64,000 bases of DNA. It comes from Octopus vulgaris (lineage: Eukaryota). Numbering within the stretch: position 1 is the first letter of the stretch; every line of letters starts with the position of its first letter. Under the pieces are notes generated by a model, which was not told where the DNA came from, searched no databases, and saw only the letters and a list, made by a program, of their open reading frames with translations. Location of the stretch: the NCBI GenBank assembly GCA_951406725.2, contig OX597826.1, positions 46,190,001 to 46,254,000 on the forward strand, written 5' to 3'. Both the position numbers and the translations under genes were made by a program. Below, one piece after another: positions 1 through 55,365 of the stretch.

Positions 1-352
1 CTATCTTCCCAGTTAGCCTACCTTTGACATTGCTGCACCTCTTATGTGTCCATAGCTTACACTGGGTACATCTTATAGAGTTTCTACCTACACCTTTTCT
101 ACAGATCGAGCAGGGCCATCTTCCTGAGGATATTTGTGGGTTTTCTACCTTTCTACTTATTAGTACTTTGGTTTTAGCTAGGTTGACTCTAAGGCCCCTC
201 GATTCTAAACCCTCCTTCCACACCTGGAACTTCTCCTCCAGTTCTGATAGTGACTCAGCGATTAGAGCGAGGTCGTCAGCATAGAGGAGCTCCCAGGGGC
301 AACCTGTCTTGAATTCCTCCGTTATTGCCTGGAGGACTATGATAAATAGGAG
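1..352 (-). pseudogene. Frameshifted continuation of the RTE ORF: YADD, thumb and a PHD-like Cys/His cluster
   Basis: Manual translation: LLFIIVLQAITEEFKTGCPWELLYADDLALIAES...VNLAKTKVL...WPCSICRKGVGRNSIRCTQCKLWTHKRCSNVKGRLTGKI. Confidence 0.85.
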
Positions 353-2328
353 GGGCTGAGTACTGAACCCTGGTGGACCCCAACCTCTACTTTGAATTCT
401 TCTGTGTACATGTTGCCAACTCTAACCTTACTTACGGCATCTCTGTACATGGCTTGCACAGCCCTCACCAGCCATTCATCTATCCCTAGTTTCCTCATTG
501 ACCACCAGATGAGGGATCGGGGGACCCTATCAAAGGCTTTCTCCATGTCAACGAAAGCCAGGTACAGGGGCTTATCCTTGGCTAGGTATTTCTCCTGCAG
601 CTGCCTTACCAGGAATATAGCATCAGTGGTGCTTTTCCCTGGGACAAACCCAAACTGCATCTCATCTAAACTAACTCTCTCTCTAATTAGTTGGGCTATG
701 ACCCTCTCCGTAACCTTCATTACCTGATCCAACAGCTTGATACCTCTGTAATTATTTGTATCCAGGGCATCACCTTTACCTTTGTAGCAGTTGACTAGTA
801 TGCTGCTACACCAGTCATTGGGTATGACTCCTTCGTGTATCACCTGGTTGACTATACGGGTGACTAGGTTATAGCCGACACTGCCAGATATTTTGAGCAT
901 CTCTGCAGTAATTCCTGATGGGCCTGGGGCTTTCCCTGTCTTCATGCTTCTAATTGCCTTAGCTACCACGGAACTATCAACTCGGATAGCTGGTCCCTCT
1001 GTTGGGTCAACATTTGGCAGACTCTCTTTATCCCATTCATTTTCTTTATTCAGCAAACTTTCATAGTGGCATCTCCAAACCTCTCTCTTTGCATCCTCAT
1101 TTAGCGCAAGTGAACCATCATCCATGCGAACACACTTCTCTCCTACCACATCACGATTCTCTCTCACACACTGTCTTGCAACACGAAATACCTCAAGTCT
1201 TTCATCCTCACGGCTCAGAACATTGGCAAATTTTTTCTTATCCGCTTCCCCTCTGGCTAAATAAACCTGTCTCCTAGCTTCCCTTTTGGCTGTCTGATAC
1301 AATTCCCTGCTACCACTGTTCTTCCAGTCCTTCCAAGCCTGTCTCTTTTGTCTAATAGCCCCGTCAACCACCGTGTTCCACCACCATGTAACTCTGGGTC
1401 GAGATGGTACTTTGCTCCATCCACAGATCTGGTCAGTGGCTGTCAGCAGATTGTCCCGTAGGAATCTCCAGTTGTCTTCCACATTAAGTGGAGCTATATC
1501 CCCTTCTATTTCGTCAGAGGCTTCGAGTAGTATGTCTCTAAATCTCTGTCCATTTGCAGGATCTTTAAGCTTCCAGACCCTTCTCCTCCAAGCTGGTCTT
1601 CTTCTGGGCAACCATTTAGCTCTGATCCTGAAGTCGCTAACTACTAATCTATGTTGGGGAGTACATTCTTCGCCTGGGAAGGTTTTGGCATTTATAATCA
1701 GCCCTCTTTCCCTTTTTCTGGCAAGGATGTAGTCAATCTGGCTGGTGTGTCTGCCAGAACGGTAGGTGACTAGGTGAGAGGTGGGTTTCCTGAAGTGGGT
1801 ATTGCAGACCATAAGGTCATTTGCATCGCAGAACTCCAGCAGCCTGGTTCCCTCCTCATTTCGAGAGCCAAAACCGTGGCCTCCATGGATGCCATGGAAG
1901 CCCCTGACATGTCGTCCAACATGTCCATTGAAATCACCTGCCACGAAGAGAAGGTCACTGTCATTTGTCAATGAGGTAGTCCGCAATAGGGTGTCATAGA
2001 ATTGGTCTTTTTGTCCTTCCGGTAGCCCTGGTTGAGGGGCATATGCCGAGATGATGGTAGCTGTCCTATGGTGAAGAACTAATCTAATTTTAATTACTCT
2101 GTCACTTACTCTGACTACCTCGATTACCTTACCTATCCATTTCTCCGCAAGAAGTATACCCACGCCCCCGACTCCGTCAATGTTCCCTGCCCAGAAAATC
2201 TTGTACCTGTGTTCCTTGCCCGTGAGGAGCCTAGCAGAACCTCCTCTCCACCTTACTTCCTGGATACAGCATACATCCACACGTCTCCGTTCAAGCAGCT
2301 CTACAATCTCTCCAGACCTACCTTTCAA
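337..2328 (-). CDS. RTE ORF: AP-like endonuclease plus N-terminal part of reverse transcriptase (663 aa in track)
   Basis: ORF track translation with EN and RT motifs. The frame is open upstream to at least 2415 without an ATG and ends early because of a 1-nt frameshift near 352-355. Confidence 0.9.
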   Translation of the reverse strand: MKGRSGEIVELLERRRVDVCCIQEVRWRGGSARLLTGKEHRYKIFWAGNIDGVGGVGILLAEKWIGKVIEVVRVSDRVIKIRLVLHHRTATIISAYAPQPGLPEGQKDQFYDTLLRTTSLTNDSDLLFVAGDFNGHVGRHVRGFHGIHGGHGFGSRNEEGTRLLEFCDANDLMVCNTHFRKPTSHLVTYRSGRHTSQIDYILARKRERGLIINAKTFPGEECTPQHRLVVSDFRIRAKWLPRRRPAWRRRVWKLKDPANGQRFRDILLEASDEIEGDIAPLNVEDNWRFLRDNLLTATDQICGWSKVPSRPRVTWWWNTVVDGAIRQKRQAWKDWKNSGSRELYQTAKREARRQVYLARGEADKKKFANVLSREDERLEVFRVARQCVRENRDVVGEKCVRMDDGSLALNEDAKREVWRCHYESLLNKENEWDKESLPNVDPTEGPAIRVDSSVVAKAIRSMKTGKAPGPSGITAEMLKISGSVGYNLVTRIVNQVIHEGVIPNDWCSSILVNCYKGKGDALDTNNYRGIKLLDQVMKVTERVIAQLIRERVSLDEMQFGFVPGKSTTDAIFLVRQLQEKYLAKDKPLYLAFVDMEKAFDRVPRSLIWWSMRKLGIDEWLVRAVQAMYRDAVSKVRVGNMYTEEFKVEVGVHQGSVLSPSYLS

Positions 2329-2435
2329 TGTGCCAACGTTGAGCGTGCCAACTCTGAGGGTTTGGGAGGTGTGGGCATCAGAGACCCTGGGACGAGGGAC
2401 AGCAGTGTCATGTACCTGAAATATATATATATATA

Positions 2436-2596
2436 TACGACGGGCTTCTTTCAGTTTCTATCTACCAAATTCAATCAAAAGGCTTTGGTTAGCCCAGGTC
2501 TACAGTAGAAGACACTTGCCCAAGGTACCACAGTGGGACTGAACCTGGAACTATGCAGTTGGGAAGCTTCTTACCACACTGCCACACCCGCACCTA
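2436..2596 (-). mobile_element. tRNA-headed SINE family A, 5' half (interrupted at its internal TA tract by the RTE)
   Basis: Matches the head of full copies at 8417 and 57249 (GGTTCAGTCCCACTG B-box-like motif, CCTTGGGCAAGTGTCTTCTACT). Confidence 0.8.
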
Positions 2597-13745: not shown

Positions 13746-14275
13746 CAAATGTGAGGATAAAATTCTTTTCGAAAAAAATATTTTCTCGAAAAAATTTTAT
13801 CAATGGCCAACATATTAAAAAATACCTTTAACGGTTAAATTTATAAACAATTCATAAATGAGGGCAAAGGAAAAAATTTCTAATGCCAAATATGCCGAAA
13901 AATTGGACATATTGTCCATTAGCCATATAATATTTTCACAATACTACTCGAAAAAAGGTCAACAGAAATTTCTAACAAATTCCATTATTACCATATCAGA
14001 CTGATTTCAGAGTTAGCTACTAAGAGCCCTCTCTTCGTCAGTGATACATGTGGTAAAAGAAATAAATGAGATACTTACTCATACCCACGGAAGAAGCAAA
14101 TACTAAGTCGTGGGCACAACTAAGTACCCCAAATACATCCAAAATAGAAATACTCCGGCCCATTCGAGTAGCGTGCGTATTGTGAAAATATTATATGGTT
14201 AATGGACAATATGTCCAATTTTTCGGCATATTTGGCATTAGAAATTTTTTCCTTTGCCCTCATTTATGAATTGAT
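13746..14275. mobile_element. (TA)n-embedded Penelope-like non-autonomous element with inverted arms (13848-13952 and 14163-14273)
   Basis: About 100-bp near-perfect inverted repeat enclosing a hammerhead-like motif. Confidence 0.65.
13994..14046 (-). ncRNA. Type I hammerhead ribozyme, decayed stem III
   Basis: Minus: TATCA-CTGACGA-AGAG..CTCT-GAAA-TCAG-TC-TGATA. Stems I and II pair; stem III resembles a mutated CCGG palindrome. Confidence 0.6.
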
Positions 14276-50880: not shown

Positions 50881-52672
50881 AAATTTCTGTTTCAAACACC
50901 AGCTTAATTTATTTTACTAAATACTTCATTATTTACAAAATTAATTAAAATGAAGACAGCATATTTCAATAGAAAAAGGGTCACAAAAGGTTAAATATTC
51001 TCAAGTTATTGAACTTAACATTCCAAGCAGGAAGATAACATTATAGATGTTGTTGTTGTTGCTCTTTAGCCTCAGATTAGCCTACATCAAGAAATAGGAA
51101 AAAGCATTTTTTGTTGTATTTCAGGATGGCCTTGGTGGGGGGGAAGACTTTTTTTTACCCAAATAAACAAATTATATATTCGTTCTTCACTTGTTTATTA
51201 CTGTTCTTATATATTTGTTTTTCACTTTTTTATTACTATTCATATCCACTGTCCGGAAATCTTTCCTCACACATCTGTGACCTCTTCAGCATTTTTTGTT
51301 GTTAGCCCCTATTAACCCAGATCAAGAAAATGCTATAACAATGGAGAAAAAAAAAGAGGCAGAGCTTCTAGACATTGTTGTTGTTATTAAATCACAGGTT
51401 ACCCTGCATCAGAAATACACTATGATAATGGAATAAAAAAAAAACCAGCTTCTTGTTATTGTTTAGGCTAATCTTTCGTTTGAACACCTGACTTGGTCTG
51501 AGGCTATAGCAGAAGACACCCAAATGCATAGATATAGACAGATAAACATATACATACACATGACAAGCTTCTTTCAGTTTCTGTCCACTACACCCACTCA
51601 CAAGGCCGTGGTCAGTCTGAGTCTATAGTAGAAGACACTTGCCTAAGGTGCCACACGGTAAGACTGAAACTGGAACCATGCAGTTAAGAAGCAAACTTCT
51701 TACCATACAGCCACACGTATTATATGCCATGAAATATAGTACGGGTTAGGGCACATGCATTTATAATAGTGTAAGCCTCTGTTGTAGAAGCATGATCTGT
51801 GGAGGACATGAAATCCGTTTGTGTGTAGTTCTCAAAGACATTTGTGTGCGAAGTCAGTGGTAATGTTTAACAGAGCAATATAGTGTTTGTGTGATTAAGT
51901 CATCTCGTGTGTCAACAATGGATGAAAGCTGAAGGTGGCGCTGGTGGTGTCGGGTGGAGGGTGAATTCGTGCCTGCCGTGTTTATTGTGTTGAGTTTCCT
52001 ACGTGATGTCTTCTGTTTGTATTGGTATTAGACTAACAAGTTCAGTGTCTTCTCCAGTGTCAGCAGAGGTGAGATTTTACAGATGTTAGGTTATGTGTGT
52101 GTGTGTGTGTGTGTGTAAACATCCCCACCTCTCTCTCTTCCTATTTGTATATATATAATGTGCGATGGTTTCTGGTAAGCAGCGTTGATTTTTACAATTC
52201 TGTAAATAATAAATATTTTATAGGCTTAAAGCTTATAAGCTATCACCATGTAATGGCTAAAGAAAATAGTCTAATATTGGGTCAAATATGCTCTCAACAG
52301 AAAAAAAGGGTTTCCTGTACATGTGGGAAACCTACATTTTGCCATTGAGTGCTTGTAAGCTTATATACCCCAATATCAGACTATTGTCTAAGCTTATGAA
52401 ATATTATTATATATATATATAATTTGTCAACATGCAAACCCATACTTATTCCCTTTCTGCAGATATTTTATTGTAGCCATGCCAAAGCACTGCTTCAGAG
52501 GGTTTAGTTGATCAAATCCATACTAGTACATTTTAAAGTCTGTTATATATCTTATTGGTCACTTTTTGCCGTACCACTAAGATATTGTGCAGAGGGACTA
52601 ACCATGAAACCACTGGCTTATAAAGTGCAAACTGCATAAAATACACAGACCATATCTATACCTTTCTCACTC

Positions 52673-52703
<31 letters not shown>

Positions 52704-52812
52704 TTAAGTAGGTGAATGAATTATCCTATGTTTATCGTCAGCATGGAAAATTCGTTTGGTTACCATGTAGGCAATCATTGAAATTTTTGGTTGTCTTGTT
52801 GTTGAGAGAGGC

Positions 52813-52908
52813 TCCTTTTCTTTCCTGATGAGAAGATTGAATAATGCACCCTTTATTCCTTCGGAATGAAAATATGCTGTCTTCGAAACATGTGTCGAGA
52901 GTAAAGGA
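52813..52908 (+). ncRNA. Canonical type I hammerhead ribozyme; predicted cleavage after C52896
   Basis: Stem I TCCTTTTCTTTC/GAGAGTAAAGGA (11 of 12 pairs including G-U); CTGATGA at 52825-52831; stem II GAAGA/TCTTC with G-C closing pair; GAAA at 52885-52888; short self-complementary stem III (ACATGTGT); GUC triplet. Confidence 0.85.
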
Positions 52909-53049
52909 ATTTTGTTAACATCTTCGTTCGACTCCATTCTTTCATTTATATATATATATATTGTTAAATTTATGGGCAATAAATTAGTTACCCCTCTATA
53001 ATACGCAAAATATTTTAACATTTTTTAATGAAATTCCTAATAACATAAG

Positions 53050-53287
53050 CACCATCTGATCGTGGCCATTTGCCAGCCTCATCTGGCACCTGTGCAGGTG
53101 GCACGTAAAAAGCACCCACTACACTCACGGAGTGGTTGGCGTTAGGAAGGGCATCCAGCTGTAGAAACACTGCCAGATCAGACTGGACCCTGGTGCAGCC
53201 TCCCGGCTTCCCAGACCCCAGTTGAACCGTCCAACCCATGCTAGCATGGAAAACGGACATTAAATGATGATGATGATGGTGATGATG
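53050..53287 (+). mobile_element. RTE-tailed short element (family E)
   Basis: GGCACGTAAAAAGCACCCACTACACTC..AGGAAGGGCATCCAGCTGTAGAAAC..TTAAA(TGA)n. Further copies at about 6880-7045 (-), 48117-48268, 55235-55352 and 61055-61257. Confidence 0.8.
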
Positions 53288-53880
53288 ATATAATGAGATA
53301 TTTTCGAACATCAAATGGCTATGGGGGGGGGGTCTGGTAGAATAAAACGGGAACTAAAGGGGTCGATAGGTGAAAAAAAAAATGGTGGAGAAACACTGGT
53401 TTAGTGGTTAGGACCCTTGTCATGGCTGTGGTAATCCAAGTTCACGTCCTGATGATTGCAGCCTCCCTCAATGTTGGTGCAGATGTGGCTGCATGATAAG
53501 GAGCTTGCTTCCCATCCACATTGTTCTGGGTTCAATCCCACTGCATGGTGTCTTAGAGAAGTGTCTTCTACTATAGCCCCATGTTGATGAAAGCCTTGTA
53601 GTGAGTTTGGCAGAAGTCACCATGTAGCCATGAAATTCTTAGCACTTTTATTCTTCTGGCTTTGCTGTCATCACCAACACCAATTTTGTTTTTTGCTTTT
53701 TGCTTTTTTTGTTTGCATTGTCATTGTCATTATTATTTATCATCATCATCACCACCACTATCACAATTATCATCACACTCAGTATTGTGATTGTCAACAT
53801 TATCATCATCTCCATCACCATCAGTATCATAACTTTCACCAGCATCTACCATCACCCCACAACATCCATCATCATCATCA

Positions 53881-54519: not shown

Positions 54520-55240
54520 ATCCCTCACCAGCTGAAGGGGTCTTTGTCTTGTCTTGCAAGTTCCTTGATGACCCCTGCCCTCCATCACCAGCTGGGGGGA
54601 CTTTGTCTAGTCTTGCAAGATCCTTGGTGACCCCTTCCCTCCACCACCAGCTGAGGGGGACTTTGTCTTGTCCTGCAAGTTCCTTGTTGACCTCTGCCCT
54701 CCAGCACCAGCTGAGGGGACTTTTTCTTGTCTTGTAAGTTCTTTGATGACCCCTGCCCTCCACCACCAGCTGAGGGGACTTTGTCTAGTCATGCAAGTTC
54801 TTTGATGACCTCTGCCCTCCACCACCAGCTGAGGGGACTTTGTCTAGTCTTGCATGTTCCTTGGTGACCCCTTCCCTCCACCACCAGCTGAGGGGGACTT
54901 TGTCTTGTCCTGCAAGTTCCTTGTTGACCCCTGTCCTTCATCACCAGCTGAAGCTACTGTGTCTTGTCTTGCAAGTTCCTTGGTGACCCCTGCCCTCCAC
55001 CACCACCTAAGGGAACTTTTGTCTAGCAAGTTCCTTGATAACCCCTGCCCTCCACCACCAGCTGAAGGGACTTTGTCTTGTCTTGCAAGTTCCTTGATGA
55101 CCCCTTCCCTCCACCACCAGCTGAGGGGACTTTGTCTTGTCTTACAAGTTCCTTGTTGACCCCTGCCCTTCATCACCAGCTGAAGGTACTGTGTCTTGTC
55201 CTTCAAGTTCCTTGGTGATCCCTGCCCTCCACCACTAGCT
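54520..55240. repeat. GC-rich minisatellite, unit about 60 bp, about 12 copies
   Basis: Unit CCCTCCACCACCAGCTGAGGGGACTTTGTCTTGTCTTGCAAGTTCCTTGATGACCCCTG. Confidence 0.95.
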
Positions 55241-55365
55241 GTAGAAACCGTACCAAAACAGACAATGGAGCTTTGCACAGACCACTGGTATGTCAGCTCT
55301 TCTCAAACTGTCCAACCCAAGCCAGCATGGAATACAGACATTAAAGGATGATCTTTCATTGTTTA

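Follow-up and report, generated by a model that had tools for sequence, protein, structure and literature searches.

Hammerhead ribozymes and one-ended tails have already been published for Penelope retroelements, and the systems closest to the locus studied here are summarised as given in the sections of the respective papers available to us. Elements of the Hydra clade, which includes Hydra-1_Obim, have a single ORF with reverse transcriptase (RT) and GIY-YIG domains, RW and DKT motifs and a C-terminal CxxC/CxH motif; they carry a hammerhead in the pseudo-LTR (pLTR), insert into (TA)n and possess an inverted 5'-truncated arm (Craig et al., 2021; PMC8557442). The minimal type I hammerheads of metazoan Penelope-like elements (PLEs) combine the core with a G10.1-C11.1 pair, a helix II of 6-8 bp and a tiny palindromic stem III, and thousands of solo genomic copies exist. 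They are predicted to depend on dimers, and in the published work monomers did not cut, while dimers cut weakly (Cervera and de la Pena, 2014; PMC4209133). Type I hammerheads with a short stem III were also described by Lunse et al. (2017; via the review PMC6765202).

A further relevant system is PAc (Poseidon, Anolis), which belongs to a different clade and cleaves and extends both strands of an AT-rich target. Two adjacent RT start sites, located downstream of the hammerhead and inside the ORF, define its tail. The template is uncut RNA, the hammerhead is assisted by protein and dispensable in vitro, and PAc itself is predicted to dimerise (Frangieh et al., 2024; PMC11167929).

The locus described here was found in Octopus vulgaris, in a window of 64 kb (the whole stretch of DNA that was analysed, to which all coordinates without a locus name or a plus or minus sign refer). 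We consider it very probable that it represents a two-armed stub of a Hydra-clade Penelope element in (TA)n, likely made by priming on two strands at two fixed RNA sites, and that its ribozyme, which would need a dimer to work, is probably idle in this copy.

The hammerhead motif and its core

The motif at 52813-52908 contains CUGANGA, GAAA and NUH around a three-way junction that is open at stem I (Table 1). Judged from its sequence it is a real type I hammerhead with an intact core, for which cleavage is predicted; all the core nucleotides listed in the initial annotation are indeed there. Since GUC ends at C52896, which we take to be C17 according to the established hammerhead numbering, the cut would fall after this base, in agreement with the position first proposed. 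The estimate of about 12 bp for stem I held for its length of 12 positions, these being made up of 11 pairs (one of them G.U) and one U.U mismatch; the minimum free energy (MFE) fold lengthens the stem to 52800-52920. The (TA)n tracts reported on both sides were found as well.

Table 1. Features of the octopus insert and of its hammerhead (positions in the window).
Feature	Position	Strand	Basis
(TA)n target microsatellite, left part	52679-52703	.	TRF
Inverted arm, leader ~+158 to "long" end ~+210 after the cut site	52704-52757	-	BLAST to L065
TTT microhomology joining the arms head to head	52755-52757	.	query 1-54 and 52-243 overlap by 3
Sense arm, pLTR -141 to "short" end +50, carries the hammerhead	52755-52946	+	similarity to relatives
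Stem I, 5' strand; predicted extension from 52800	52813-52824	+	sequence, fold
Core CUGAUGA (C3-A9; G5 = 52827)	52825-52831	+	sequence
Extended stem II domain, 53 nt	52832-52884	+	alignment, covariation, fold
Core GAAA (G12 = 52885, A15.1 = 52888)	52885-52888	+	sequence
Stem III / loop 3, ACAUGUGU, self-complementary with two U.G wobbles (dimer register)	52888-52895	+	alignment, fold
GUC	52894-52896	+	sequence
C17, predicted cleavage 3' of the base	52896	+	sequence
Stem I, 3' strand; predicted extension to 52920	52897-52908	+	sequence, fold
(TA)n target microsatellite, right part	52947-52961	.	sequence

When a hammerhead descriptor was applied at the motif's own stringency, the window yielded one site, whereas 100 dinucleotide shuffles yielded none. 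The z value of the fold was -2.42. A match to a hammerhead covariance model, which the initial annotation had named as a check, did not appear: Rfam gave no hammerhead for the whole window at gathering score, nor for 52500-53700 at E<=10, likely because of the long stem II. Given this missing match and a stem III of only 2 bp, the word "canonical", by which the motif had been called, fits the core only. A canonical type I architecture with a 6-bp helix I, a 4-bp helix II and a loop-loop contact was rejected, as stem II spans 53 nt.

The window contains other features. A second, unrelated hammerhead-like motif (CUGACGA ... GAAA UCRG UC, with a 26-nt stem II) has its core at 14041, within 13760-14275 of the minus strand; the insert that carries it is a high-copy, inverted-arm, (TA)n-flanked one, with 3,017 candidates, of which 40 were scored. 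An open frame of 706 aa at 337-2457 (minus strand) has LINE-like endonuclease and RT-type motifs, its class being judged by eye. A very high-copy SINE-like repeat with a (GAT)n end (53045-53290, plus strand) adjoins the stub, and 54526-55241 is occupied by 12.2 tandem copies of a 59-bp unit, with 85% matches.

Stem II and the family alignment

Stem II, which had been described as closed by a G-C pair, unusually long and provided with an extra hairpin, proved to be so. It starts from the pair G52832-C52884 and consists of 6 bp, a U.U mismatch, 5 bp (broken in this copy by A52840), an internal loop and a distal hairpin (52853-52869), in which ATTCC-TTC-GGAAT lies at 52855-52867. For comparison, 30 sequences from five subfamilies, out of 72 distinct ones extracted, were aligned. 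The rows were cut out by a pattern that demands the core and the ends of stem III, so that the invariance of the core in this alignment is not evidence. Two-sided changes were observed in 6/11 pairs of stem II, with 88.8% of the cells paired, and in 4/11 pairs of stem I, the relatedness of the 30 rows inflating this covariation. Overall pairing amounted to 85.7%, as compared to 39-48% in controls with slid partners.

The UUAUU of the distal hairpin is invariant in 30/30 rows. Its pairing with the 3' strand of stem I, as a pseudoknot or switch, comprises 9 bp in subfamily A and some members of B and beats shuffles in just 8/30 rows, and a general pairing of this kind was dropped for this reason.

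The domain differs in size from its published counterparts. In the 26 rows published for the Hydra clade (PMC8557442, sections available to us) loop 2 measures 3-10 nt, as compared to 53-56 nt for stem II here, and the long arm is thus peculiar to the octopus hammerhead family. Compared by eye, the hammerhead of Hydra-1_Obim in the same source is different from that of the octopus family. With respect to the minimal metazoan PLE hammerheads, the core, the G10.1-C11.1 pair, the tiny palindromic stem III, the predicted dimer dependence and the solo genomic copies are shared, whereas stem I is long and helix II has 11 bp plus an internal loop and a distal hairpin (PMC4209133, in part).

Stem III, loop 3 and the dimer register

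Stem III had been proposed to be short and of the dimer type, with the palindrome ACATGT. Short and dimer-type it is, and ACATGT is found at 52888-52893; the productive register, on the other hand, is that of ACAUGUGU. ACAUGU is off-centre, and a stem III between two molecules would be rebuilt in the register that spans A52888 to U52895, with tandem U.G wobbles. The off-register ACAUGU duplex and the productive one are equally stable (-6.0 kcal/mol each). Loop 3 is here an even, fully self-complementary 8-mer, which distinguishes it from the Hydra clade as described in the available part of PMC8557442.

In all of the 17 copies that were folded, the probability of stem III in the monomer was at most 0.14. 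The extraction pattern had left the centre of loop 3 free (any pyrimidine-purine), and the 30 rows show UA in 15, UG in 12 and CG in 3; these changes concern whole subfamilies and can all pair in a dimer. The non-pairing centre CA was present in 46/7,888 matches, scattered over the subfamilies. The weak monomer stem III and the self-complementary loop 3 fit the dimer-type animal Penelope hammerheads, and the ribozyme is likely to be one that cuts only as a dimer, as predicted by these models.

Another hammerhead family, with a short stem II and a palindromic loop 3 (CGUACG, CGUUGACG), was observed near elements at L055:2235 and at L064:6833 and 7398, all on the minus strand.

The parent element

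The initial annotation saw no recognisable coding role in the insert at about 52704-52946. A search of the genome (2.8 Gb) with these 243 bp gave 2,697 candidates, and the 40 that were scored had 89-100% identity. With a tolerant pattern, 7,888 related hammerheads in five subfamilies were counted genome-wide, against 0 for the reversed control; a 24-mer of the subfamily to which the window copy belongs occurs 494 times. Longer copies continue upstream into a coding region and are arranged as pLTR-ORF-pLTR. The full layout is visible in L065, where an ORF with RT and GIY-YIG, broken into two frames, stands between two hammerhead repeats, and open ORFs of 900 aa and 775 aa are present in sister subfamilies. 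RT hits led to 15 regions, and for 12 of them the family hammerhead is listed; L061 adjoins L060 and is not listed apart, and no family hammerhead was found in L055 and L069.

The fold model of the element's ORF (pLDDT 81.5) retrieved telomerase RTs at all of the PDB ranks 1-6. The RT was called by fold and motifs and the GIY-YIG domain by motif alone, since Pfam (six ORF pieces and a 16-row alignment) and the PDB sequence search named neither of them. The motifs comprise RW (RIRWL), DKT (SDKT), FDI..FYPSI, GLYRDD and a GIY-YIG-type IYQC..YIG, followed at the C terminus by CxxC..E..N..CxH in the form CLLCNSE..VNT..CKHW. As in EN+ Penelope-like elements, a telomerase-like RT and GIY-YIG are joined in one ORF, and direct or inverted pLTRs with a hammerhead are accompanied by a one-ended tail. 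RW, DKT, the C-terminal CxxC/CxH and the targeting of (TA)n match the Hydra clade as given in the accessible part of PMC8557442, and the single ORF, the hammerhead in the pLTR and the inverted, 5'-truncated arm are likewise shared with it. Neptune, the first guess for the clade, and Nematis were rejected, as neither the DKG motif nor the CX2-5CxxC linker was found.

One feature of the Hydra clade is missing. The CxCX5C linker upstream of GIY-YIG is absent in L063, L058, L032 and L031; as it is present in 14/14 aligned homologues, its absence is read as a loss and the lineage as Hydra-related, derived. The 243-bp insert is thus a pLTR/leader stub of a Penelope-like retroelement that is assigned by its motifs to the Hydra clade, as a derived member, and this replaces the view of an insert without a role.

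An Asn-rich insert of variable length stands in the place of the cysteine linker in the ORFs of L058, L031 and L032, which sets them apart from the Hydra clade (PMC8557442, in part). These copies all still land in (TA)n; targeting was kept after the loss of the linker that had been proposed to mediate it.

Two subfamilies deserve a separate mention. Subfamily E was amplified with the core CCGAAGA (U4C), beside intact 775-aa ORFs (L062:5695, L063, L077). At L060-L061 (G000:C1:119.51-119.53 Mb), at least three full units of subfamily D follow each other head to tail with a period of about 3.6 kb, a setting in which neighbouring hammerheads could dimerise in cis.

Two arms with two fixed ends

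The segment 52704-52757, missed in the initial annotation, is an inverted second arm. BLAST to the natural copy L065 aligned window positions 52700-52757, on the minus strand, with +158..+215; the 3' end of this arm points left into (TA)n. When the ends of arms downstream of the cut site were collected, 36/78 were short (+45..66) and 29/78 long (+187..221), 5 being intermediate and 8 without an end in view. These two fixed ends lie about 155 nt apart and were seen in all five subfamilies; the tail of about 155 nt compares to 30-40 nt in the Hydra clade (PMC8557442, available sections).

The two arms of a copy almost always differ in their ends. Among TA-flanked inverted pairs, from loci chosen regardless of their ends, the combination long and short was found in 55/57, and short and short or long and long in none. 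A further set, predicted beforehand, gave long and short in 17/17 (one locus repeats L110, and two long ends are imperfect). In subfamilies B-E, read by eye, 15/17 resolved pairs were long and short, one was borderline and one short and short. The exceptions to the rule are L096 (short and short), L132 (similar to short and short), L118 (+74) and L129 (+40). No adjacent pair was present within the fetched stretch at 19/89 loci. This pairing suggests that two fixed RNA sites serve to prime both strands of the target. In the literature we found no paper on this hammerhead family, nor on the pairing rule with counts, although older Penelope papers may bear on it; the words "ribozyme" and "hammerhead" do not occur in the main text of PMC13282606.

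Proposed insertion mechanism

In source elements, two RNA copies would pair through loop 3 to reach the active fold, possibly, as in PAc, with the aid of the protein that the element encodes. Both strands would be nicked by the endonuclease within (TA)n, each nick would prime at one of the two RNA sites, and a microhomology would serve to join the two cDNAs in head-to-head orientation. Most of the template would be uncut RNA. In L1 twin priming, too, both target strands prime, and a head-to-head inversion with a microhomology junction results, as here; what differs is that the second priming takes place at a fixed site and that the same RNA region is often copied twice, by both arms, in 27/61 pairs. 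This double copying needs two templates or two passes.

PAc resembles the octopus family in having two RT start sites downstream of the hammerhead that define the tail, an AT-rich target and an uncut template (PMC11167929, sections available to us). The start sites of the octopus elements are instead about 155 nt apart and lie upstream of the ATG (+263 in L065), and a genomic pairing of one short and one long end is not reported for PAc in those sections. In vitro, the use of start sites by PAc did not differ between the strands, with no strand preference (same source), which counts against priming at one site per strand.

A tentative variant, to which we give a low probability, is that loop 3 serves as an RNA dimerisation signal which brings two element RNAs into one protein dimer, with cleavage being secondary. 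The short site would then serve one subunit for priming one target strand, and the long site would serve the other subunit for the opposite strand.

The inverted layout might otherwise arise by self-priming or fold-back of a single cDNA, or from an antisense template, with the tail added at resolution, as was proposed for rotifer Penelope (PMC3846280 and PMC8557442, both in part). Some junctions are palindromic (L173), and in 14/61 pairs the short arm does lie inside the span of the long one. In the other 47/61, as in this copy, the short arm extends past the long arm's span, and fold-back on one cDNA is thereby excluded for them; the arms of this copy (+158..+210 and -141..+50) do not overlap, and neither could have been copied from the cDNA of the other. 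We therefore regard fold-back as a quite unlikely origin of the layout and retain two-strand priming.

Cut-site footprint in genomic copies

If cut RNA were the main template, arms should start at +1. From 91 matches with a break near the cut, 24 collinear small indels were dropped, which left 67 junctions. No peak of arm starts was found at +1 (2/67), and 15/67 fell in -3..+4, as compared to 10.9 expected if evenly distributed. An excess was instead observed just before stem II, with 39/67 ends at -15..-1 against 8 at -30..-16. As copies run through the cut site, the template would have been mostly uncut RNA. PAc, which uses uncut RNA as template and whose hammerhead needs protein (PMC11167929, in part), agrees with the missing peak.

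Activity of the ribozyme at this locus

At 52840 this copy has A, where C stands in 31/31 aligned relatives and also in the first 100 matches listed for the subfamily. Stem II, which has a predicted probability of 0.99 with C, falls to 0.10 with A, and a rough dimer balance is +0.2 kcal/mol for this copy as compared to -3.2 kcal/mol with C at 52840. The copy is solo, not tandem, and so has no partner in cis. Its rank as the best candidate for an active RNA in the window was consequently not upheld.

The core itself is conserved among paralogues, a point on which the first reading had made its case depend: all 11 core positions are intact in 24/31 copies, which were found by DNA similarity, and the core occurs in five subfamilies. 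Within inserted copies, rare variants are found at 8/341 core positions (2.3%) and at 49/2883 positions outside (1.7%). Inserted copies thus decay without sparing the core, which suggests that selection acts on source elements and not on stubs. In contigs of 4 of 23 sequencing runs the family sequence is present, and in the three runs guessed to be RNA the unique flanks 52431-52709 are uncovered, a result that says nothing on expression. Activity here is doubtful because A52840 weakens stem II and the copies show no accumulation of 5' ends at the cut site, and the models indicate that the ribozyme at this locus is probably idle.

A copy acting as a stand-alone ribozyme, with stem II docked on stem I and the monomer cutting host or read-through RNA, would agree with the intact core, with the long, covarying stem II, with the invariance of UUAUU (30/30), which may reflect a contact with protein or within the tertiary fold, and with a hammerhead fold just 3.7 kcal/mol above the MFE. 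We nonetheless judge it highly improbable, since stem III has 2 bp (probability 0.00) and stem II a probability of 0.10, core bases are lost as often as others, no host gene was seen among the ORFs of the window, and metazoan PLE hammerhead monomers did not cut in the published work (PMC4209133, available part).

Hardly credible, finally, is a non-autonomous retrozyme- or MITE-like family whose 243-bp unit would be amplified via cut, circularised RNA: at least 12 other loci have nearly the same short layout and animal hammerhead retrozymes exist (bioRxiv 10.64898/2026.07.22.740005, in part), but the loci in question had been selected for similarity to this copy and have junctions that vary by several bases, the family shows a continuous range of arm lengths, and the copy is not tandem, with 5' ends that show no peak at the cut (2/67 at +1). 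A non-LTR retrozyme, with tandem head-to-tail hammerheads and no coding parent, was also rejected, this being a solo inverted stub of a family with coding copies.

Implications for the Penelope family

As a locus, the insert is of little weight, being one decayed stub among thousands. In the family to which it belongs, a long and covarying stem II is shared by about 7,900 hammerheads, and on these it can be tested whether this arm alters the weak, dimer-dependent activity of Penelope hammerheads. The dimerisation of two element RNAs through loop 3, if true, would assign these hammerheads a function in integration; it would account for the rule of one short and one long end, for the regions copied twice (27/61), for the conservation of loop-3 pairing and for the surplus of arm ends in front of stem II. 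The near-strict pairing of the two ends speaks against self-priming, as it has been published, in the case of most copies, and it yields a sharp prediction on how Penelope elements insert.
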